The translations under genes and the position numbers were made by a program. A stretch of 64,000 bases of DNA from Eledone cirrhosa (Eukaryota), in assembly GCA_964016885.1 (NCBI GenBank), contig OZ024741.1, forward strand, positions 149,110,001 through 149,174,000, in the 5' to 3' direction. Shown here piece by piece: positions 3,611-56,291 of the stretch (its first letter is position 1; the number at the start of each line of letters is the position of its first letter). The notes below the pieces were generated by a model that was not told the origin of the DNA, did no database searches, and saw only the letters and a list, made by a program, of their open reading frames with translations.

Positions 3611-3727
3611 ATACATATTTATATATATATATATACATAGCTTGAGACACGATCATTGTGTGGATCTGCCTGATTCTGGATTAGCAGGTTCGACGGACAC
3701 GTCTAATGATTTCGGACCAAATTGTTT

Positions 3728-3776
<49 letters not shown>

Positions 3777-3779
<3 letters not shown>

Positions 3780-4578
3780 GGAGGTGAGTTTTATTGTAGT
3801 ACAATAAAGCAATGCAGATATCGGATAAGAAGCACTCTACAGTTTGTAGGACTGGAGTATACATAATACACAAGAACAAAAGATGGCCAAAGGAGCTCCA
3901 TGTATCTCACTATGCGCACTTCAAAAACAAACATCATCATGCAATAATATTTGTGTTTTCATCAGATAAAACAGGAGGTATATTTAATGTTTTTGTCTTT
4001 CAAGGACCATATGAGTTCTGAGAGAGCCGTGTTGGTTCTTTTAAGTTTGTATTTAAAAGAACCAACACTTAAAAGAACCAACACGGCTTGAACAGTTCTC
4101 TATCTAAAATCTGCAATCTCTGCCTAAATGAAAAATTTACCATTATCTCTAATCTAGATTCTTTAATAAATAGACGCACTGACTTATTTTCTATCTGCTT
4201 GCATAAATTCCATAAAACATTTCACAAAGTATACAGCTAATATTCAATTCTTTATCAATTTAGAATCTTTTTTCTCAAAGGCACATATACATACACCTCT
4301 TTTAAAATATACCCATCTTCCTACTTTATTTCAAAGGGTATTATACACTCTATAATACTTGTTTACTCATTACCCTTACTCTATTTCACCTTGAAAAATC
4401 CTTCGTAAACATATACATTTGTTTTGACGCCAGATTATTCATCCTTAATTCATTATTTTTTTCTCCCTATCATCTAACTCATTATTCTCAATACATATTA
4501 ACATTTTCTTTTTCTTCGCACATATTATCAATTCCTTCAATATACAAACCTTAACTTCACATTTTTTTTTTCTCTTCG
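3777..4578. mobile_element. Rearranged fragment of the Penelope-like family at 53574-56267: pLTR (-), GIY-YIG piece (-), then C-terminus plus 3' UTR (+)
   Basis: 3777-3978 matches 53574-53678 and the reverse complement of 56120-56267. 3979-4060 matches 54912-54993. 4088-4578 is the reverse complement of parts of 54050-54873. Confidence 0.85.
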
Positions 4579-4586
4579 TTAATTTT

Positions 4587-4704
<118 letters not shown>

Positions 4705-4740: not shown

Positions 4741-4937
4741 TAACGAAGGAAATGTGGTAAGGAACCAGGTGGACCATAACGCACCAAAGTACTCAATACT
4801 TGAGGTAGTAGAGTGGGTAATAGGAACCAGTAAGACCCCGACAGCTGAGCTCAAGCCGTTTCGACGGCTAATTCAGTCCAGAATTAGCCGTCGAAACGGC
4901 TTGAGCTCAGCTGTCGGGGTCTTACTGGTTCCTATTA
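4741..4937. repeat. PLE-like terminal fragment ending in a perfect 57-bp hairpin (4818-4874 / 4881-4937)
   Basis: Perfect inverted arms with a 6-nt loop, embedded in (TA)n. Contains gtcGAAACGGCTT, which resembles a hammerhead 3' half. Confidence 0.75.
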
Positions 4938-5335: not shown

Positions 5336-6477
5336 GGGGATTTCTTTCTTCGTTTCTGTGCCTTTCCTTTCTTCTATCCTACGCCATTTTGTTTGTGTGT
5401 GGGTTGCGTGCTCAGTTTGCGCATGCGCCACATCCGGGTGTCTGTGTGTGTTTGTGTTCATTTTTCTATTTTTCTATTTATATTTGTTTGTTTATTTATT
5501 TATTTATTGTTGGTTGGTTGTTTGTTCTATGTGTGTGTGTGTTTTCATTTTGTCTTGTGTGTGTTTTCATTTTGTGTGTGTTTTCAATTGTAAGTTGTTT
5601 ATATATGTGTGTGTGTGTTTTCATTTTGTCCTTAATTGTAAGTTGTGATGTTGCTGTTCCACTCATATTTTCTATTTAATTTTGGTTTTAATTCTTTTAT
5701 GCTTACTGCCTCTGTAATTTGCCTAAACATTGCGTCTTTCTTGTGTGTGGATTCTATTTTTATTTCTATGCTCTCTAATTTACCCCTGTGTTCTATCTTA
5801 GCATGTTGGTAGAGCACAGATGATTCTTTACTATCTTGGAGGTCTCGCCAGTGTTCATTTATTCGTTCCCCTATACTACGAGCTGTCTCACCTATGTACA
5901 CTATATTTTTGTTTCTACATTGTCCCTCAGTACATCTTATGCTATATACTACATTTCTAGTTTTACAGTTAATATGGGGGCTTATTTTACAGGTTATACA
6001 TTTCTTATCTATACATGAGGGTCTTTGGAACGGGTATGTCTTGCTAATAAGTGTTTTTACGGAGGTACCAGGTCTTTCTACTATCTTAATATTGAGATTA
6101 TGTTTCTTTAGGGCCCTTCTAAATTTGTAGGCTAGTTCACCTCTAGGGGTTGTATTGATGAACATTACACTCTGGTATTTATTGCTATCATACCATGAGT
6201 TTATTCTATTGGCCTTGTTCTTAGTTCTTTCTATTCTATTCCAAAATTTGCTCCTATACAAGGGGCAGGTCCCATTTATGTCATTATTTACCATTTTTTC
6301 CCATTTGGTTCTGGCTCCTTTATACACTCTGATTCTATCTCTCTGATTGTAGCCAGAGAATTGCATACGGTGGATGAAGTGTTGTATGTGTCTCTCTAGT
6401 TCTTCGGGGTTGCACATGCGGGACACATTTCTCATCACCCGTATCAAATCCGCAATCAGTATGTTGATTTTGGTATG

Positions 6478-7987
6478 TTACCTAGACACTTATGACCTTA
6501 GCAACCTGTGCCCTACAAGACCAGCAAGAGGCAGACCACCTACCATTACCTCAATGGCCAAGAAAACCCACACAGATAGATGGAACGGGTGGACCAGAGC
6601 CATACGGACACCCGAAAACCACGATGAACTGAAGAAAATGATTGCACATGCGGTAGGGGCCAGCATAAAATTAACCCTTAAGGAACATATGTTCAAATTT
6701 AATGGTAAAACATATGCCCAAGAGGAAGGAGCAGCCATTGGTGTTAGCATTGCAGGCGACATAGCTAACTTGTTCATGGTATGGTGGGACAGTAGACTTA
6801 AACAAAAACTTAAAGAACAATTAGAAGACAGATTAACCCTGATAATGTACTCCCGCTACGTAGATGATATAAACATCGTAGTTAAGACACCCCCACTAAA
6901 GAACAGTCAGGAACCTGAGAAAAACACAATGGAAAGCATCCAGCAAATAGCAAACTCCATCCACCAGAGCATTAGAGTTACTATAGACTACCCAAGTAGA
7001 CACCCCAACCATCGATTACCTGTACTAGACACAGAGCTCTGGTTAGATACTATTAACAACCAAAAACAAATCCTCCATTCCCATTATGCCAAACCCATGA
7101 CTTCCAAACATCTGATCCACCGAAACTCGGCCATTTCGGACCATACCAAAATCAACATACTGATTGCGGATTTGATACGGGTGATGAGAAATGTGTCCCG
7201 CATGTGCAACCCCGAAGAACTAGAGAGACACATACAACACTTCATCCACCGTATGCAATTCTCTGGCTACAATCAGAGAGATAGAATCAGAGTGTATAAA
7301 GGAGCCAGAACCAAATGGGAAAAAATGGTAAATAATGACATAAATGGGACCTGCCCCTTGTATAGGAGCAAATTTTGGAATAGAATAGAAAGAACTAAGA
7401 ACAAGGCCAATAGAATAAACTCATGGTATGATAGCAATAAATACCAGAGTGTAATGTTCATCAATACAACCCCTAGAGGTGAACTAGCCTACAAATTTAG
7501 AAGGGCCCTAAAGAAACATAATCTCAATATTAAGATAGTAGAAAGACCTGGTACCTCCGTAAAAACACTTATTAGCAAGACATACCCGTTCCAAAGACCC
7601 TCATGTATAGATAAGAAATGTATAACCTGTAAAATAAGCCCCCATATTAACTGTAAAACTAGAAATGTAGTATATAGCATAAGATGTACTGAGGGACAAT
7701 GTAGAAACAAAAATATAGTGTACATAGGTGAGACAGCTCGTAGTATAGGGGAACGAATAAATGAACACTGGCGAGACCTCCAAGATAGTAAAGAATCATC
7801 TGTGCTCTACCAACATGCTAAGATAGAACACAGGGGTAAATTAGAGAGCATAGAAATAAAAATAGAATCCACACACAAGAAAGACGCAATGTTTAGGCAA
7901 ATTACAGAGGCAGTAAGCATAAAAGAATTAAAACCAAAATTAAATAGAAAATATGAGTGGAACAGCAACATCACAACTTACAATTAA
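6478..7987 (+). CDS. PLE reverse transcriptase (partial) + Cys linker + GIY-YIG endonuclease
   Basis: GAAIGVSIAGDIANLFM, YSRYVDD, LPVLD, C-x4-C-x2-C-x7-C, NVVYSIRC...YIGETARSIGERINEH. The first ~35 aa of the listed ORF come from the inverted arm. Confidence 0.9.
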
Positions 7988-8283
7988 GGACAAAATGAAA
8001 ACACACACACACATATATAAACAACTTACAATTGAAAACACACACAAAATGAAAACACACACAAGACAAAATGAAAACACACACACACATAGAACAAACA
8101 ACCAACCAACAATAAATAAATAAATAAACAAACAAATATAAATAGAAAAATAGAAAAATGAACACAAACACACACAGACACCCGGATGTGGCGCATGCGC
8201 AAACTGAGCACGCAACCCACACACAAACAAAATGGCGTAGGATAGAAGAAAGGAAAGGCACAGAAACGAAGAAAGAAATCCCC

Positions 8284-11883: not shown

Positions 11884-12523
11884 ATATATATATATATAAT
11901 ATATTATATATATAATATATTATATATATATATACATATATTATATTATATATATATATAATATATTATATTATATATATATATAATATATTATATATAT
12001 ATATATAATATATTATATATATATATATAATATATTATATATATATATATATATATAATATATTATATATATATAATATATTATATATATATATAATATA
12101 TTATATATATATATACATATATTATATTATATATATATATAATATATTATATTATATATATATATAATATATTATATTATATATATATAATATAATATAT
12201 ATATATATATAATATATTATATATATAATATATAATATAATATATATATATATATAATATATTATATATATAATATATTATATATATATATAATATATTA
12301 TATATATAATATATTATATATATAATATATTATATATATATATTATATATATATATATATGATATATTATATATATATATATATAATATATTATATATAT
12401 ATATTATATATTATATATATATATTATATATATATATATATATATAATATATTATATATATATATATATATAATATATATATATATAATATATTATATAT
12501 ATATATAATATATTATATATATA
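11240..12523. repeat. Long interrupted (TA)n tract (units like tatattatatatatataa); continues at 15427-15988
   Basis: Read directly; the same motif occurs on both sides of the RTE insertion. Confidence 0.95.
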
Positions 12524-15426
12524 GATGCAAATAACCTAACTATCTGTAACACTAACTTCAAAAAACGTGACAATCACCTGATCACCTATAGATCCGGGGA
12601 ACACACAAGCCAGGTAGATTATATCCTTACCAGAAGACGTGACAGAGTGTCTGTTGTAAACACTAAATCCCTCCCCCATGAAGAATGCACCTCCCAACAT
12701 AGACTGATAATTAGCGACCTCATAGTCAGGACGAGACGTACTCGACAGCAGACGAGGACTATCCTCAGGAGAAAAATATGGAAGCTAAAGGACCCCACAG
12801 CCAGGAATAAATTTCAAAGCATATTACTTGATGCTTTCGACAGTAAGGAAGAACATTTAGAGTCGGACAATATAGAGGGAGAGTGGGAATTTCTGAAAGC
12901 AAACCTGCTGTTGGCGACAGACGAAGTCTGTGGCTGGAGCAGGCCTGTAGGCAGGAGGAGAGTAACATGGTGGTGGAACAGTAAGGTGGAGGGGTCAATT
13001 AAGGCCAAAAAGCAGGCTTGGAAAGTATGGCGGGATGGGGGAAGTAGAGAGGACTATCAAGTGGCCAGGAGGGAAGCTAGGAGACAAGTGTACTTAGCAA
13101 GAAGGGAAGCTGAGGAAAGAAAGTTCAAGCATGTTCTACAACGCGATGACCAAAAACGTGAGGTGTTCAGGATTGCTAGGCAATGCGTCAAGGAAAACCG
13201 TGATATTGTCGGGGAGAAGTGTGTACTAAACGACGATGGCACACTTGCCATCACCGACGCTGATAAGAAGGTAGCTTGGAAGTGTCACTATGAAAGGCTA
13301 CTAAATGAGGAGAATAAATGGGAGAAAGACAGTCTCCCCCATATCGACCCAATAGAGGGACCAGCAGTGTTAGTCGAGGGGAGTATAATAAGTAAGGCAA
13401 TCAAGGATATGAAGACGGGTAAGGCGGCTGGGCCTTCGGAAATAGTTGCTGAGATGCTGAAGGCATCTGGCACGGTGGGACACACCATGGTCACCCGCAT
13501 AGTTAACCAAGTCGTACAGAATGGGGTTGTTCCGAAGGACTGGCATAGCAGCATCATCGTTAACTGTTATAAGGGTAAAGGAGACGCCCTAGATAGGAGT
13601 AACTATAGAGGCATTAAATTAATCGACCAGGTCATGAAGGTCACGGAAAAAGTAATAGCGCAACTAATCAGAGAGAGAATTGACCTAGATGAAATGCAGT
13701 TCGGGTTTGTGTCAGGCAAAAGTACCACAGACGCTCTTTTCATAGTACGACAACTACAGGAGAAGTACCTAGCTAAAGGTAAACCCCTCTACTTAGCTTT
13801 TGTCGACTTGGAGAAAGCCTTCGACAGAGTCCCCCGCTCCATTATCTGGTGGGCTCTTAGAAAACTAGGCGTTGACGAATGGCTTGTGAGGGCTATACAA
13901 GCCATGTATAAAGAAACAGTCAGCAAGGTTAGAATTAACAACGAATATAGTGAAGAGTTTAGCGTAAAAGTTGGCGTCCATCAGGGCTCTGTTCTCAGCC
14001 CACTACTATTTATTATTGCCCTTCAGGCTATAACAGAGGAGTTCAAGACAGGCTGCCCATGGGAACTCCTATACGCAGACGACCTGACACTCATAGCGGA
14101 ATCAATGGCCGAGCTAGAGAAGAAATTCCAAACATGGAAGCACGGCCTAGAGTCAAAAGGACTTAAAATTAACCTGGCTAAGACCAAAGTACTAGTTTGT
14201 AGGAAAGAAAACAAGGCGGCGGTCCCTTCTGGGAAATGGTCGTGCTCGGTGTGTAGGAAAGGCGTAGGTAGAAACTCCATTTTATGTCCTAAATGCAAAG
14301 TATGGGTGCATAAAAGATGTAGTGGGATCACAGGTAAGCTAACTAAGAACATAGATTTTACATGTGGCCGGTGCTCTGGTGCAATAAGTAGCAGCAAGTG
14401 CCCACAAAATACTAGCTCTTTCAATTGCGCAGAGGGTTCTATAGAAATAGTGGACAGCTTCCGTTACCTGGGCGATAAAATCAGCAGTGGGGGAGGGTGC
14501 TCTGAAAGTACTGTAGCTAGAGTCAGAACTGGTTGGAAAAAGTTCAGAGAGCTTATACCACTATTAGCTGCTAAAGGGTTCTCACTAAAAATGAAAGGCA
14601 GGTTGTACGATGCCTGCATACGAACAGCAATGCTGCATGGCAGTGAGACCTGGGCATTGTGTGCAGAGGATATACGCAGACTAGAGAGGAACGAAGCTTG
14701 CATGCTCCGCTGGATGTGTAACAGTAATATACGTGAACGGCAAAGCATAAACGAACTAAGGAAAAAATTAGAGATAAGAGGGATCAGATGTTGTTTACTC
14801 GAGAGAAGGCTACGTTGGTATGGACACGTGATGCGCATGAAAGTCGATAGCTGTATAACAAAGTGCAGGGCAATAAAGATAGACGGTAGTCACGGAATAG
14901 GCAGACCTAGAAAAACCTGGGACGAGCTGATAAACTCCGACATCACACACTTACACCTCTCCAAGACAATGTCACTGGACCGAGACCTTTGGCGGTACTC
15001 AGTAACAGAGAAGACCTGCCTTACCTAAATATATAGTAAAACCTACTCCAGCCAGTAAGCATCTCTAACAAAATACACCCCGTCCCACCACCACCACCCC
15101 CACCCTATCCACACCACCCCGTTCTATGTAAAGTTATGTTGGTGCCGCGCCATCGAGGCCGAAACAAATGAGATCGTGTAGGTGTCACGACAAAAAAACA
15201 CACAGTCCACGCTGTAATGTGGCCGTGTAGGCAACACGGTAAAAACCTCCCAGACCCACACTGTAAATGTGGTTGGTGTTAGGAAGGGCATCCAACTGTA
15301 GAAAACCTGCCAGACAGTCCTATGCGAGCAAGACAATCACTCTTGCCTCAAGTGGGACTACCCCCGTCCAAACCCATGCAAGCGTGGAACACGGACGTTA
15401 AACGTTGATGATGATGATGATGATGA
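12524..15426 (+). mobile_element. RTE-clade LINE, 5'-truncated, with 3' UTR and (GAT)n tail
   Basis: Uninterrupted ORF, ~400-bp 3' UTR ending ggacgttaaacgtt(gat)n, inserted in a TA tract. Confidence 0.95.
12647..15028 (+). CDS. RTE ORF: APE C-terminus + reverse transcriptase with an internal PHD finger
   Basis: NYRGIKL, FVDLEKAFDRV, GVHQGSVLSPLLF, LYADD, FRYLG, MLHGSETW, RLRWYGHV, GRPRKTW; C4HC3 motif at 14243-14374. Confidence 0.93.
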   Translation: MSVVNTKSLPHEECTSQHRLIISDLIVRTRRTRQQTRTILRRKIWKLKDPTARNKFQSILLDAFDSKEEHLESDNIEGEWEFLKANLLLATDEVCGWSRPVGRRRVTWWWNSKVEGSIKAKKQAWKVWRDGGSREDYQVARREARRQVYLARREAEERKFKHVLQRDDQKREVFRIARQCVKENRDIVGEKCVLNDDGTLAITDADKKVAWKCHYERLLNEENKWEKDSLPHIDPIEGPAVLVEGSIISKAIKDMKTGKAAGPSEIVAEMLKASGTVGHTMVTRIVNQVVQNGVVPKDWHSSIIVNCYKGKGDALDRSNYRGIKLIDQVMKVTEKVIAQLIRERIDLDEMQFGFVSGKSTTDALFIVRQLQEKYLAKGKPLYLAFVDLEKAFDRVPRSIIWWALRKLGVDEWLVRAIQAMYKETVSKVRINNEYSEEFSVKVGVHQGSVLSPLLFIIALQAITEEFKTGCPWELLYADDLTLIAESMAELEKKFQTWKHGLESKGLKINLAKTKVLVCRKENKAAVPSGKWSCSVCRKGVGRNSILCPKCKVWVHKRCSGITGKLTKNIDFTCGRCSGAISSSKCPQNTSSFNCAEGSIEIVDSFRYLGDKISSGGGCSESTVARVRTGWKKFRELIPLLAAKGFSLKMKGRLYDACIRTAMLHGSETWALCAEDIRRLERNEACMLRWMCNSNIRERQSINELRKKLEIRGIRCCLLERRLRWYGHVMRMKVDSCITKCRAIKIDGSHGIGRPRKTWDELINSDITHLHLSKTMSLDRDLWRYSVTEKTCLT

Positions 15427-24199: not shown

Positions 24200-24626
24200 A
24201 GTTGTTTCCCACTTTCACAGTTACATATGAAATTCAATTTGTATTTTTCACATTTTGAAATAGAATCTTGCTCTTTTGCAGTGCCCCTAGTTATATCGCA
24301 GTACACAAGTTGTTTGTGAATAACTGTATTACTGCAACAAACAGGGAGAAGGTTTGTGTGACAATATACATATAGCTAGAGGTGACAAGGAATGCGAGAC
24401 AGAATGCAATAAGACATTGGTTAATAACTGGTTAATAACAGGACCTCCTCCTCCTCCTTCTCCTCATTCCTCTCCTTATGTCATGTGGATATATCAAAGC
24501 AGCTGACTCTCTTATTAGGCAGGTAAGTACGAACATCTAAGTAGGATATACAACTATGCTGACAAAAGAATAGACAGGTAGGAGGATAGACAGCAATTAG
24601 ATGTGGAGGGTGTTTTTTATGTATGT

Positions 24627-27600
24627 ATATATACACACCTGTGTGTTGTGTTTTAGTGTACTTATGTGTGTATATACACACCTGTATGTGTGTTGTGTTT
24701 TAGTGTATTTATGTGTGTATATACACACCTGTGTGTTGTGTTTTAGTGTACTTATGTGTGTATATATATACACACCTGTATGTGTGTTGTGTTTTAGTGT
24801 ATTTATGTGTGTATATATATACACACCTGTATGTGTGTTGTGTTTTAGTGTATTTATGTGTGTATATACACACCTGTATGTGTGTTGTGTTTTAGTGTAT
24901 TTATGTGTGTATATATATACACACCTGTATGTGTGTTGTGTTTTAGTGTATTTATGTGTGTATATATATACACACCTGTATGTGTGTTGTGTTTTAGTGT
25001 ATTTATGTGTGTATATATATACACACCTGTATGTGTGTTGTGTTTTAGTGTATTTATGTGTGTATATATATACACACCTGTATGTGTGTTGTGTTTTAGT
25101 GTATTTATGTGTGTATATATATACACACCTGTATGTGTGTTGTGTTTTAGTGTACTTATGTGTGTATATACACACCTGTATGTGTGTTGTGTTTTAGTGT
25201 ATTTATGTGTGTATATACACACCTGTATGTGTGTTGTTTTTTAGTGTATTTATGTGTGTATATACACACCTGTATGTGTGTTGTGTTTTAGTGTATTTAT
25301 GTGTGTATATATATACACACCTGTATGTGTGTTGTGTTTTAGTGTATTTATGTGTGTATATATATACACACCTGTATGTGTGTTGTGTTTTAGTGTATTT
25401 ATGTGTGTATATATATACACACCTGTATGTGTGTTGTGTTTTAGTGTATTTATGTGTGTATATACACACCTGTATGTGTGTTGTGTTTTAGTGTATTTAT
25501 GTGTGTATATATATACACACCTGTATGTGTGTTGTGTTTTAGTGTATTTATGTGTGTATATACACACCTGTATGTGTGTTGTGTTTTAGTGTATTTATGT
25601 GTGTATATATATACACACCTGTATGTGTGTTGTATTTTAGTGTATTTATGTGTGTATATATATACACACCTGTATGTGTGTTGTGTTTTAGTGTATTTAT
25701 GTGTGTATATACACACCTGTATGTGTGTTGTGTTTTAGTGTATTTATGTGTGTATATATACACACCTGTATGTGTGTTGTGTTTTAGTGTATTTATGTGT
25801 GTATATATATACACACCTGTATGTGTGTTGTGTTTTAGTGTATTTATGTGTGTATATACACACTTGTATGTGTGTTGTGTTTTAGTGTATTTATGTGTGT
25901 ATATATATACACACCTGTATGTGTGTTGTATTTTAGTGTATTTATGTGTGTATATATATACACACCTGTATGTGTGTTGTGTTTTAGTGTATTTATGTGT
26001 GTATATACACACTTGTATGTGTGTTGTGTTTTAGTGTATTTATGTGTGTATATATATACACACCTGTATGTGTGTTGTATTTTAGTGTATTTATGTGTGT
26101 ATATATATACACACCTGTATGTGTGTTGTGTTTTAGTGTATTTATGTGTGTATATATATACACACCTGTATGTGTGTTGTGTTTTAGTGTATTTATGTGT
26201 GTATATATATACACACCTGTATGTGTGTTGTGTTTTAGTGTATTTATGTGTGTATATACACACCTGTATGTGTGTTGTGTTTTAGTGTACTTATGTGTGT
26301 ATATACACACCTGTATGTGTGTTGTGTTTTAGTGTATTTATGTGTGTATATACACACCTGTATGTGTGTTGTTTTTTAGTGTATTTATGTGTGTATATAC
26401 ACACCTGTATGTGTGTTGTGTTTTAGTGTATTTATGTGTGTATATATATACACACCTGTATGTGTGTTGTGTTTTAGTGTATTTATGTGTGTATATATAT
26501 ACACACCTGTATGTGTGTTGTGTTTTAGTGTATTTATGTGTGTATATATATACACACCTGTATGTGTGTTGTGTTTTAGTGTATTTATGTGTGTATATAC
26601 ACACCTGTATGTGTGTTGTGTTTTAGTGTATTTATGTGTGTATATATATACACACCTGTATGTGTGTTGTGTTTTAGTGTATTTATGTGTGTATATACAC
26701 ACCTGTATGTGTGTTGTGTTTTAGTGTATTTATGTGTGTATATATATACACACCTGTATGTGTGTTGTATTTTAGTGTATTTATGTGTGTATATATATAC
26801 ACACCTGTATGTGTGTTGTGTTTTAGTGTATTTATGTGTGTATATACACACCTGTATGTGTGTTGTGTTTTAGTGTATTTATGTGTGTATATATATACAC
26901 ACCTGTATGTGTGTTGTGTTTTAGTGTATTTATGTGTGTATATATATACACACCTGTATGTGTGTTGTGTTTTAGTGTATTTATGTGTGTATATACACAC
27001 CTGTATGTGTGTTGTGTTTTAGTGTATTTATGTGTGTATATATATACACACCTGTATGTGTGTTGTGTTTTAGTGTATTTATGTGTGTATATATATACAC
27101 ACCTGTATGTGTGTTGTATTTTAGTGTATTTATGTGTGTATATATATACACACCTGTATGTGTGTTGTGTTTTAGTGTATTTATGTGTGTATATATATAC
27201 ACACCTGTATGTGTGTTGTATTTTAGTGTATTTATGTGTGTATATACACACTTGTGTGTTGTGTTTTAGTGTATTTATGTGTGTATATATACACATCTGT
27301 ATGTGTGTTGTGTTTTAGTGTATTTATGTGTGTGTATATATATACACACCTGTATGTGTGTTGTGTTTTAGTGTATTTATGTGTGTATATACACACCTGT
27401 ATGTGTGTTGTGTTTTAGTGTATATATATATACACACCTGTATGTGTGTTTTGTTTTAGTGTATTTATGCCTGTATATATACACACCTGTATGTGTGTTG
27501 TGTTTTAGTGTATTTATGTGTATATATACACACCTGTATGTGTGTTGTGTTTTAGTGTATTTATGTGTATATATACACACCTGTATGTGTGTTGTGTTTT

Positions 27601-47382: not shown

Positions 47383-47734
47383 TGTGCGTGTCTGTGTATG
47401 AGTTATGTACGCGCATATCCTATCCGTATCCTATCTATATCCATTCTGAGTTCAAATCCCGCCAAGGTTAACTTTGCCTTTCATCCTTACGGGGTCGATA
47501 AAATAAAGTACCAGTAATGTACTGGGTATTTGCTGGCCTTGTGCCAAAGGTTGAAACAATTATTTATATACATATCTTCTTAGATGTACAAAAGTAAATC
47601 AAAGTACTGAATACATGTAGTAAAGCTTATTTATATGTTCAAAGCCGCTGATTCATGTCGATGCTACTCAGTTTCTTGCTATTTGTGAACTTTCAAGCGA
47701 TAAAAATGAATATTGCATCGAGTGCCCATTCAGT

Positions 47735-48356
47735 GAATGTTTGAATGTTTAAAACACATATTCTAATGTTTAAAATACATATTCTAATGTTTAAAACACA
47801 TATTCTAATGTTTAAAATACATATTCTAATGTTTAAAACACATAGTCTAATGTTTAAAACACATATTCTAATGTTTAAAACACATAGTCTAATGTTTAAA
47901 ACACATATTCTAATGTTTAAAACACATATTCTAATGTTTAAAACACATATTCTAATGTTTAAAACACATAGTCTAATGTTTAAAACACATATTCTAATGT
48001 TTAAAATACATATTCTAATGTTTAAAACACATATTCTAATGTTTAAAATACATATTCTAATGTTTAAAACACATATTCTAATGTTTAAAACACATATTCT
48101 AATGTTTAAAACACATAGTCTAATGTTTAAAACACATATTCTAATGTTTAAAACACATATTCTAATGTTTAAAACACATATTCTAATGTTTAAAACACAT
48201 ATTCTAATGTTTAAAACACATATTCTAATGTTTAAAATACATATTCTAATGTTTAAAACACATATTCTAATGTTTAAAACACATAGTCTAATGTTTAAAA
48301 CACATATTCTAATGTTTAAAACACATATTCTAATGTTTAAAACACATATTCTAATG
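47735..48356. repeat. 21-bp minisatellite (aatgtttaaaacacatattct), ~29 copies
   Basis: Read directly; recurring variants aaatacat and catagtct. Confidence 0.97.
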
Positions 48357-48505
48357 CCCCTCCCCATAATTATATTTTTCTCTCCATACTACCAAAACAC
48401 ACATCTACAGTATTTGTATATGCGCTACAATTTATGTACATGTTATGTAGAGAAAGATGGGAGAGAGAGAGAGAGATACAGAGAGGAGAGAGATTGATGG
48501 TAATT

Positions 48506-53317: not shown

Positions 53318-53520
53318 AAGTGGTAACACAACAGTTAGTTCACCATATCGAGAACAATTGTTTCACCCTAGTGGATCTTCAGCTCGTAATGGACATGGTT
53401 ATACGGAACAGATGGCGGACTCGACACGCCGCATCGGCAGCGGACACGCATCGGCGGCGGGAAGATCCGCTAAGGTGAAACAATTGTTCTCGATATGGTG
53501 AACTAACTGTTGTGTTACCA

Positions 53521-53523
<3 letters not shown>
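53318..53523. repeat. 63-bp inverted repeat with a minus-strand hammerhead (53349-53386); PLE terminal fragment
   Basis: cgag-CTGAAGA-t-cc-actag-gg-t-GAAA-caattg-TT^ctcg; the right arm begins inside the core, at GAAGA. Confidence 0.75.
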
Positions 53524-53574
<51 letters not shown>

Positions 53575-53602
53575 AACAAAAGATGGTTAAAAGAGTTCCA
53601 TG

Positions 53603-53673
53603 TATTTTATTATGCGCATTTCAAAAACAAATATCATCATGCAATAATATTTGTGTTTTCATCAGATAAAACA
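53603..53673 (-). ncRNA. Type I hammerhead ribozyme in the PLE pLTR
   Basis: tgttttat-CTGATGA-long stem II-GAAA-tgcgca-TA^ataaaata; palindromic ATGCGCAT stem III. Confidence 0.85.
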
Positions 53674-54720
53674 GGAGGACATGATATGAAGGTTAAAAAA
53701 CACTTGTGGATAGTTCAGTTTTAAATCAACATATGAGAAGTAGTTTTAGATTGATGTGTGATATTGGGAAAAAAATATTTTATTTAGAGGGGGGGGTGGA
53801 AAGGATGAAAAAAGAGGAGATGAGAGTGAAGGTGGAGAGGGAGGAGTATAATGAGGAAGGATGAGATAGGAGGAGAGATGGGTGATAGAGAGAGAGAGGT
53901 AGCTTTTATAACTGAGAAAGATATATTGTTTTACATAGAGAGGTTGAAAACCGTTGGAAGATAATGTATAAATTAAAAGAATTTGAAAATTAACGAAGAG
54001 AAAAATAATGTAAAGTTAAGGTTTGTATATTGAGGGGTTTGATAATATGTGCGAAGAAAAAGAAAGAGTTAATATGTATTGAGAATAATGAGTTAGATGA
54101 AAGGGAGAAAAGAATAATGAATTGAGGATGAATATTCTAACGTCAAAAAAAATGTATATGTTTACGAAGGATTTTTACAAGGTGATATAGAGTAAGAATG
54201 TGTTGTATTATGTAATAATTGATTCTATGTTAGGCAAGAGTGAGAAAAGGTACAGATTAGGGGTTAGATATTAGAAGAAGAAGAGAAGAAAGGGAAGTGA
54301 TAAATAGGGGTGATGTAGAAAGAGTAGACAAGTATTATAGAATTTGAAAATTAACGAAGAGAAAAATAATGTAAAGTTAAGGTTTGTATATTGAGGGGTT
54401 TGATAATATGTACGAAGAAAAAATGAGTTAGATGAAAGGGAGAAAAGAATAATGAATTGAGGATGAATAATCTAACGTCAAAAAAAATGTATATGTTTAC
54501 GAAGGATTTTTACAAGGTGATATAGAGTAAGAATGTGTTGTATTATGTAATAATTGATTCTATGTTAGGCAGGAGTGAGATAGAAAGAGTAGACAAGTAT
54601 TATAGAATGTATAATAACCTTTGAAATAAGGTAGAAAGATGGGTATATTTTTAAAAGAAGTGTATATATATATATGTGTGCCTTTGAGAAAAAGATTCTA
54701 AATTGATAAAAAATTGAATA

Positions 54721-56119
54721 TTAGCTGTATACTTTGTGAAATGTTTTATGGAATTTATGCAAGCAGATAGAAAACAAGTCAGTGCGTCTATTTATTATAG
54801 AATCTAGATTAGAGATAATGGTAAATTTTTCATTTAGACAGAGATTGCAGATTTTGGATAGAGAACTGTTCAAGTATAAAGACGCAGAAGAAACCTTCTT
54901 CCAAAAGATGCTATATTTAATATTTTTGTCTTTCAAGGACCATATGAGTTCTGAGAGAGCCGTGTTGGTTCTTTTAAGTTTGTATTTAAAAGACGAATGA
55001 TGGTTATAAAGACGAGCTTTAAAAGAGGTGGAAGTGGAGCCAAAATAGGTGAAGGAATTGGTGTCAGTTATAACTTTACATTCGTAAATTAAGTTTTTAT
55101 CAAGACAATGGTTGTTGAGAGGACATTTATTTTTAATAGGGCAATTGCAATTGCAATTAGAGAGATTATTAATGAGTGACCTAGTGTTATCTATAGAAGG
55201 AATTGGATTGGAGAAGTTGTTTGCGATAGGAATAATAGTTTCTTGATTTAGAATGGGATTATGAACATTTAGCGAAGTTGTGTTTGACGTTGTATTTGGG
55301 TTTGTAGAAATTAGCCTAGGGTTTACAATGACGTCTGGAGTACTATTATTATGAAATTCAGTGTTGGAAGGAAGAGATTTAGTATTTAGTATTTTATTGT
55401 TGTGTTTAGAGATAATGTTGGAAATGTTGGCGGATGTAGAATAAGAAAATTTTATAGTGTGTTTGTTAAATATTTTACTATAGATATGTGAGGGAGGGAA
55501 GCATTTATTTAAGGCACTAAAGAATAATTTAGGAATATTGTTATTAATAGAGATGGAGAAAGGAGCATTATACCAGATTATGTTTTTGTATCTAGGTCTT
55601 TTATTAAAGTTATTGGAATGATCATGATTAATTATTCTACTGTAATTTCTTCTAGAATTTGTTTCTTTACTATATTTGATTTTATCAGGATAGCCGGCTT
55701 TAGAAAGCGCGTTATTATAGTAATTGGCGTTAGCATCAAAGATGTTTTTATTAGAAGATAGGTTAGATATTTTTTTTCCAATATTACTAACTATAGCATT
55801 CTTGATATTAGTAGGATGGTTAGATTTAAAGTTAACATAATTTAGGTTCTCATTGTTTTTATGGTAAGGGTAATATAGGCCAGTGTCAAGATTAAGAGAT
55901 ACATCCAAGAAATTAGCTAGTTTGATACTGTTATCAAATTCAATTTTTAGGTTGTGTTGGTTAAAGAGATTACGTATATTGTTCTTAATAATATTAAGGT
56001 TAACTATGTTGCAATTTAAGATAGTAAAGAGTCCATCGTCACGATAAATTCCACCGCGAAGTTGAGGAATTTTCCGACTCAAAGAGTTCAAAATAAAGAT
56101 ACCAATTAAATCAGTCAAT
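54721..56119 (-). CDS. PLE RT (partial) + GIY-YIG endonuclease
   Basis: GGIYRDDGL, FLDVSL, SNHP, WYNAPFS, CNC..KCPL..CL..NLIY, TYFGSTSTSFKARLYNH, CNLCLNEK. The first residues of the listed ORF derive from the inverted pLTR. Confidence 0.9.
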
Positions 56120-56291
56120 TGAAATGCGCATAATAAAATACATGGAACTCTTTTAACCATCTTTTGTTCTTATATATTATGTATACTCCAGTCCTACAAA
56201 CTGTAGAGTGCTTCTTATCCGATATCTGCATTGCTTTATTGTACTACAATAAAACTCACCTCCTACATATATATATATATATATATATTTA

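Follow-up and report, generated by a model that had tools for sequence, protein, structure and literature searches.

Clusters of one-way A-to-G changes in genomic copies of a Penelope-like element of Eledone cirrhosa suggest reverse transcription of ADAR-edited RNA

RNA editing is normally regarded as not inherited. According to PMC5625713, the signal of RNA hyper-editing is strongest in octopus, the RNA of a lizard Penelope element is massively edited, and ADAR disfavours a 5' G. For genomic copies of retrotransposons, a study of APOBEC editing (PMC4866542) describes other mismatch clusters as negligible and 19 invertebrates as negative. Penelope/Poseidon elements, as set out in PMC8557442 and PMC11167929, have inverted 5'-truncated arms, a one-sided tail, a hammerhead, AT-rich targets and two starts of reverse transcription; the family described here resembles them in these features, with a hammerhead-like motif and with a tail about 85 nt long in place of their 30-40 nt. 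In vitro, a Penelope reverse transcriptase (RT) uses two RNA start sites and primes on both strands, and ribozyme mutants of an anole Penelope element still inserted (PMC11167929). A literature search whose coverage left out most subscription papers returned no account of clusters of the ADAR type that had become fixed in copies of endogenous retrotransposons, and the available parts of PMC7186786 and 10.64898/2026.07.22.740005 contain nothing on such clusters.

The window analyzed is a stretch of 64,000 nucleotides of Eledone cirrhosa DNA (contig OZ024741.1, positions 149,110,001 to 149,174,000), and the copy of interest has its tail and terminal-repeat arm at 3777-3978. An (AT)n run at 3727-3776, uninterrupted where it adjoins the element, marks the tail end of the insertion and is the likely target site. 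The Penelope tail follows on the minus strand (3777-3862); by sister comparison and folding, it is the 3' end of the ribozyme strand, occurs at one end of insertions only and is unpaired in hairpin copies. Next comes the terminal-repeat arm (3863-3978, minus strand), which is double-stranded in typical hairpin copies, joined to an 82-bp piece of the end of the element's open reading frame (ORF; 3979-4060, minus strand). The window copy ends with an inverted piece of 505 bp on the plus strand (4087-4591), comprising the ORF end and the 3' region, which runs into (AT)n before any partner arm is reached; that arm is missing. The junction between arm and ORF piece is unique genome-wide, the window itself being the only match in a search for a parent that shares it.

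Relative to two sister copies, the window copy has 11 differences within 3869-3932, namely T>C at 3869, 3871, 3887, 3888, 3896, 3906, 3908, 3910, 3919, and 3932 and A>G at 3892; T>C on the plus strand is A>G on the ribozyme strand. The original prediction had read the ten T>C changes in 64 bp, with a sole further change at 3892, as fossil editing of a retrotransposed RNA. All 11 differences are present, and the claim that 3777-3868 is identical to the sister is borne out by comparison with the arm at 56120-56266. The tenth T>C has a different origin, however, as 3892G and 3932C mark a subfamily and are linked (45 of 71 unselected arms have the two together, 1 has 3892G alone and 0 have 3932C alone), and L075 has the same background as the window copy. 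Because these two alleles are one inherited haplotype, the private changes are nine T>C (3869, 3871, 3887, 3888, 3896, 3906, 3908, 3910, and 3919) and nothing else. The background rate among unselected copies is 10 T>C per 2,355 T positions, against which 9 of 32 in the window arm gives a P of about 1e-14, or about 1e-12 in a hand calculation that omits 3871. None of the 24 T positions of the window tail is changed, the 82-bp ORF piece has no private change, and the inverted piece shows no A>G cluster, carrying 7 rare alleles of mixed types. The minus-strand 5' neighbour is A or U at 10/10 T>C sites, as predicted, but the accompanying lack of 5' G (0/6 versus 8/26) is not significant in this one copy (P = 0.30). 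The duplex that had been cited for these changes (53574-53622 / 56120-56175) belongs to a different insertion, and as a partner arm is absent from the window copy itself, the RNA duplex behind them can only be inferred. With its alleles absent from four sequencing runs, no partner arm and no parent sharing its junction, the case for the window copy is therefore one made by its family.

That different insertion, the sister at 53557-56266, consists of an unedited tail-less arm (53557-53678, minus strand), a 5'-truncated Penelope-type ORF that has a YRDD motif and, at its C-terminus, a GIY-YIG-like region (54721-56118, minus strand), and an unedited, inverted, tail-bearing arm (56120-56266, plus strand). 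Pfam and PDB searches with the truncated ORF gave nothing useful. Its atlas neighbours at 0.94-0.97 carry the domains HTH_animal, GIY-YIG (in 21-27% of their members) and RVT_1, the last two in a minority of members. Judged from sequence, the sister layout matches the Penelope layout given in PMC8557442. The family is a young and very abundant Penelope-like element: a 34-mer of the tail matches exactly at 8,053 places in the 3.0-Gb genome, which sets a lower bound on its copy number. Its typical copy has two 5'-truncated pieces head to head within (AT)n, one arm with the 85-nt tail and the other without; the inverted pseudo-LTR arms, one-sided tail and microsatellite target are those of the Penelope/Poseidon type. 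Many copies are near-perfect hairpins, as exemplified by an unselected one (L038) whose fold has an energy of -281 kcal/mol (z = -36) and leaves the tail outside the stem.

Other repeat pairs in the window showed no one-way spectrum. A 1,142-bp inverted repeat without mismatch (5336-6477 / 7142-8283) overlaps an RT-like ORF at 6353-7987 and is an inverted insertion, very young, of a different family. Short perfect hairpin elements in (AT)n at 4820-4937 and 53320-53525 are likely other non-autonomous Penelope-type miniature elements. The window further holds an 839-amino-acid open frame with RT and PHD-finger matches (12509-15028) and tandem arrays with units of 47/51 bp and 21 bp (24560-27320 and 47590-48500).

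The arm contains a motif like a type I hammerhead (3898-3978, minus strand), on the strand whose end is the tail. We take it to be a hammerhead from its sequence and the hammerhead consensus; an Rfam search at the gathering score gave no match. It comprises a CUGAUGA box (3965-3959), stem II, a GAAA box (3922-3919) and a short stem III; when the sister copy is folded, stems I and II form. The core boxes are kept in 68/69 and 73/73 unselected arms. In the window copy, three of the A>G changes (3910, 3908, and 3906) fall in the 3' strand of stem I and the one at 3919 is a real base change that turns GAAA into GAAG, as had been predicted. The GAAA box is intact in 73/73 unselected arms and altered in 12/18 edited sense arms, and cleavage by the putative ribozyme would likely be lost in edited copies. 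Such damage is probably an incidental by-product of editing. Single copies carrying 3919C were considered as a sign of a mutational hotspot and not taken as such, since the query had selected them and 0/73 unselected arms have this allele.

The frequency of such clusters was assessed in 50 loci from the first 100 matches listed for the tail 34-mer, chosen by tail alone and comprising 84 arms. One-way mutation clusters were found in 0/50 of them, the most mutated locus being an old copy in which 7 T>C and 7 A>G stand beside 13 changes of other types. Searches with an arm pattern requiring at least two of five T>C gave 21 matches at 18 loci, and those with either of two A>G patterns returned 6 and 8. 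For the tail, a matched T>C pattern yielded 3 matches versus 21 for the arm, a comparison scaled by the 72 arms and 56 tails in the 50 unselected loci; four narrow doublet patterns gave 3, 0, 0, and 1. The targeted searches yielded 21 loci, the window copy included, with at least four one-way A>G changes and few others. Four candidates (L102, L108, L111, and L113) were dropped, as other substitutions were equally common or the count was 2, and L083 (3 changes) and L114 (4, in the tail) were left out of the 21. The edited share is at least about 0.3% of copies.

For the mutational spectrum, we used 21 arms of 17 young loci, excluding those of older subfamilies (L086, L088, L094, and L101). A>G on one strand makes up 316 of 332 substitutions, with 2 A>C, 1 A>T and 1 G>A, and 13-65% of the A positions are changed per arm. 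These loci, selected for this change, thus show the dense, near-pure one-strand A>G of ADAR hyper-editing and not the sense-strand G>A of APOBEC (1 among 332). Although the search patterns required T>C or A>G, partner arms and columns outside the patterns show A>G too. All 18 of 18 sense-strand edit sets differ from one another, and so the editing events are independent between loci. The edited fraction by 5' neighbour is 0.44 for U, 0.42 for A, 0.15 for C and 0.15 for G; 5' C (31/204) and 5' G (21/141) are equally low, and G differs from A/U with P = 8e-11. The ADAR neighbour preference that had been invoked for the window copy partly fits: A/U is favoured over C/G family-wide, with no specific loss of 5' G, which matches a W-A motif equally well as the textbook ADAR order.

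The changes are restricted to sequence that can pair. In 15 tailed arms, and with the columns demanded by the search patterns excluded, 100/407 sites are changed in pairable arms versus 2/360 in the unpaired tail (P = 7e-28). The strongest tail match (L112) has two tails that face each other across (AT)n and can pair, and both are changed on one strand. Changes are thus confined to double-stranded sequence and affect both strands of the duplex, as is characteristic of ADAR.

The two arms of edited copies show two arrangements. In class 1 (five loci), each arm has its own A>G changes on the same genomic strand, with 12+19 (L009), 32+22 (L085), 13+17 (L088), 28+36 (L095) and 12+18 (L109) per arm and none common to both. 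This is the outcome expected of single-pass copying of one edited fold-back RNA, with either strand as template. In class 2 (L029, L087, L090, L096, L098, L100, and L104), 49 changes are common to both arms and 1 T>C is arm-specific, the changes always being A>G on the ribozyme strand. Six further loci, the window copy among them, have ribozyme-strand A>G in one arm, and L103, L112 and L121 are complex. Shared-arm and single-arm cases together are edited on the element's sense strand in 13/13 loci. As the tail-less arm often extends further than the tailed arm, we infer that both arms were primed on one edited RNA, in agreement with the RT start sites seen in vitro. Gene conversion between arms may be the source of the sharing, yet the A>G searches gave no shared pair of opposite sign.

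Flanking sequence and one complex locus add some observations. The flanking (AT)n is interrupted on the edited strand in L085, L088, L095 and L109, and on the opposite one in L121; in L085, 65/191 T of the flanking AT are changed relative to the parent. Certain TA/CA microsatellites of the one-sided kind may be relics of editing. In L103 (806-1836), there are two nested hairpins whose inner arms mix T>C with shared A>G, possibly through two rounds of editing and copying.

A search with L085 returned an unedited match on another chromosome, which gave an edited child (L124:958-3000, G000:C1:284,011,223-284,013,265, at 284.01 Mb) and its likely parent (L125, on C3 at 318.63 Mb). In-place overwriting at L085 is ruled out by the finding of its parent. 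The child copies 2.05 kb of the parent, antisense to the Penelope ORF; the copied piece comprises (AT)n, the hairpin and the tail, a fragment of a LINE and a portion of the ORF, and the flanks differ; there is a duplication of ~160 bp at its right end. It carries 159 T>C relative to the parent, with T changed at 24/42 and 34/53 positions in the arms (58/95 in total), 0/30 in the tail, 73/228 in the AT runs and 1/92 in the ORF piece, and with the AT runs and the ragged end set aside, there are four other substitutions only. By 5' context, with the parent as reference, the changed fractions are U 25/30, A 33/40, C 15/41 and G 6/21. The edits in the LINE fragment form two patches, which coincide with the segments covered by a LINE piece in inverted orientation at a distance of 3.3 kb in the parent locus: 27/63 T are changed inside the covered part versus 1/114 elsewhere. 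This partner was chosen post hoc, after the edits were known, and the parent locus has two more inverted LINE copies farther off (at about 7 and 13 kb, 89-92% alike) with which the unedited middle would pair too. The chosen partner lies outside the copied 2.05-kb piece, and such pairing would therefore have required a longer transcript. This pair, and not the window copy, thus shows the signature of a germline retrocopy, in which the edited sequence stands at a locus of its own and its source is unedited.

The clusters, their one-way spectrum, their confinement to pairable sequence, their independence and one edited/unedited pair are direct observations. The best explanation, and in our judgment a highly probable one, is that ADAR edited fold-back RNA and that this RNA was then reverse-transcribed, which would account for the spectrum, the boundaries, both arm classes and the parent-child pair. 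Hairpin-shaped copies would be transcribed, often by read-through, into near-perfect duplexes, in which ADAR would edit 15-65% of the paired A in a small share of molecules. The reverse transcriptase would then read inosine as G, and the edited RNA would be copied into an AT-rich site and fixed in inherited DNA. Where one edited sense RNA is double-primed and builds both arms, edits would be shared (7 loci), and the strand of the window copy and the 5 other single-arm cases is as in this route. Where a whole read-through RNA is copied with its flanks in a single pass, each arm would retain edits of its own, all on one strand (5 loci). The predicted entry of an edited Penelope RNA into the germline by reverse transcription is thereby strongly supported by other genomic copies; its wider claims, that editing mutagenises retroelements and disables their ribozymes, are weaker; few edited copies turned up (21 loci, against at least 8,053 copies with a tail, and 0/50 among unselected loci).

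A DNA-level process at integration, by an error-prone polymerase of the polymerase eta type or a deaminase acting on fold-back cDNA or an RNA:DNA hybrid, is an unlikely alternative with some points of agreement. Polymerase eta type errors are A>G at W-A, matching the favoured 5' A/U and the equality of 5' C and 5' G, and second-strand synthesis and repair are required in retrotransposition. Such a process does not sit well with the conversion of up to 65% of A and the near absence of A>C and A>T, with changes that stop sharply at the tail, or with edits that track a pairing partner never in the copied DNA. Misreading of A as G by the Penelope RT while it unwinds structured RNA would likewise tie the changes to template strand and structure. 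We consider it very unlikely, as many unselected copies are hairpins, yet clusters occur in 0/50 unselected loci, and the changes are near-pure A>G and all-or-none per insertion.

An assembly artefact, from edited RNA reads in the consensus or from sequencing errors at palindromes, is a further alternative. The C alleles of the window copy are absent from runs X1, X2, X3, and X21, where reads show family-wide alleles alone, so that these four public runs speak neither for nor against this copy; several loci have same-strand changes in the flanking (AT)n, as RNA reads would. Run X1, which is probably whole-genome DNA, judging by its 1.4 Gb of contigs, holds an 88-nt contig (depth 6.4) that equals L088 with 0 differences across ten A>G plus the junction behind; this haplotype was not among the pieces listed for the other three runs. 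As X1 lacks the window allele, it probably comes from another individual than the assembled one, and its contig supports a real, inherited sequence at one locus, L088, of an older subfamily. With this, an edited child that has its own flanks on another chromosome from an unedited parent, and sense-strand editing in all 13 shared-arm and single-arm cases, only a very slim chance is left to an artefact. That the C alleles are ancestral or subfamily markers, which would have undone the original prediction, is true of 3932 and 3892G and has a next to negligible probability for the other nine, which are derived and not common alleles among the 84 unselected arms, the GAAA box being intact in 73/73 and no edit set being common to two edited loci.

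If editing of RNA followed by reverse transcription is the true origin of these clusters, they would be direct evidence of edited RNA entering the germ line via a retrotransposon and an invertebrate counterpart of APOBEC scars. Penelope would then probably offer ADAR a way into the germ line, writing edited read-through RNAs, with neighbouring host repeats and microsatellites, into new sites, so that the genome becomes a datable archive of single edited RNAs, one of which can template both inverted arms. Edited loci would give the site preferences of germline ADAR from DNA alone and show antisense read-through RNA copied with its flanks, and edits that barcode single RNA molecules would make the construction of Penelope inverted ends testable from genomes. 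As the scale is small, a large role in restriction is not shown.

Comparison with described systems places these copies as follows. RNA hyper-editing of repeat double-stranded RNA (PMC5625713) has the same type of substrate and density, and a 5' G depletion that is partly matched here, but that pattern is known in RNA only, whereas here it is in genomic DNA. APOBEC 'DNA editing' of vertebrate LTR retrotransposons (PMC4866542) is likewise a clustered one-way hypermutation that was fixed and found by comparing copies; those scars are G>A on cDNA, in LTR elements of vertebrates, and these are A>G, linked to RNA pairing and in a Penelope-like element. In avian retroviruses (PMC12925331), about half of A is likewise changed to G in an LTR or inverted repeat and recorded after reverse transcription. 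The avian cases are exogenous retroviruses known from single isolates, in contrast to an endogenous, non-viral retrotransposon with 21 independent, apparently inherited loci. The model of deaminase-driven reverse transcription that Steele and Lindley put forward (PMC11817618) also has ADAR edits passing into DNA via reverse transcription; it is a hypothesis about in-place somatic mutation, and here the edits are at new loci, seemingly in the germ line. Relative to the Penelope/Poseidon elements described in PMC8557442 and PMC11167929, what differs here is that edits, used as barcodes, suggest a single RNA as the source of the two arms and the copying of read-through RNAs from either strand together with their flanks.
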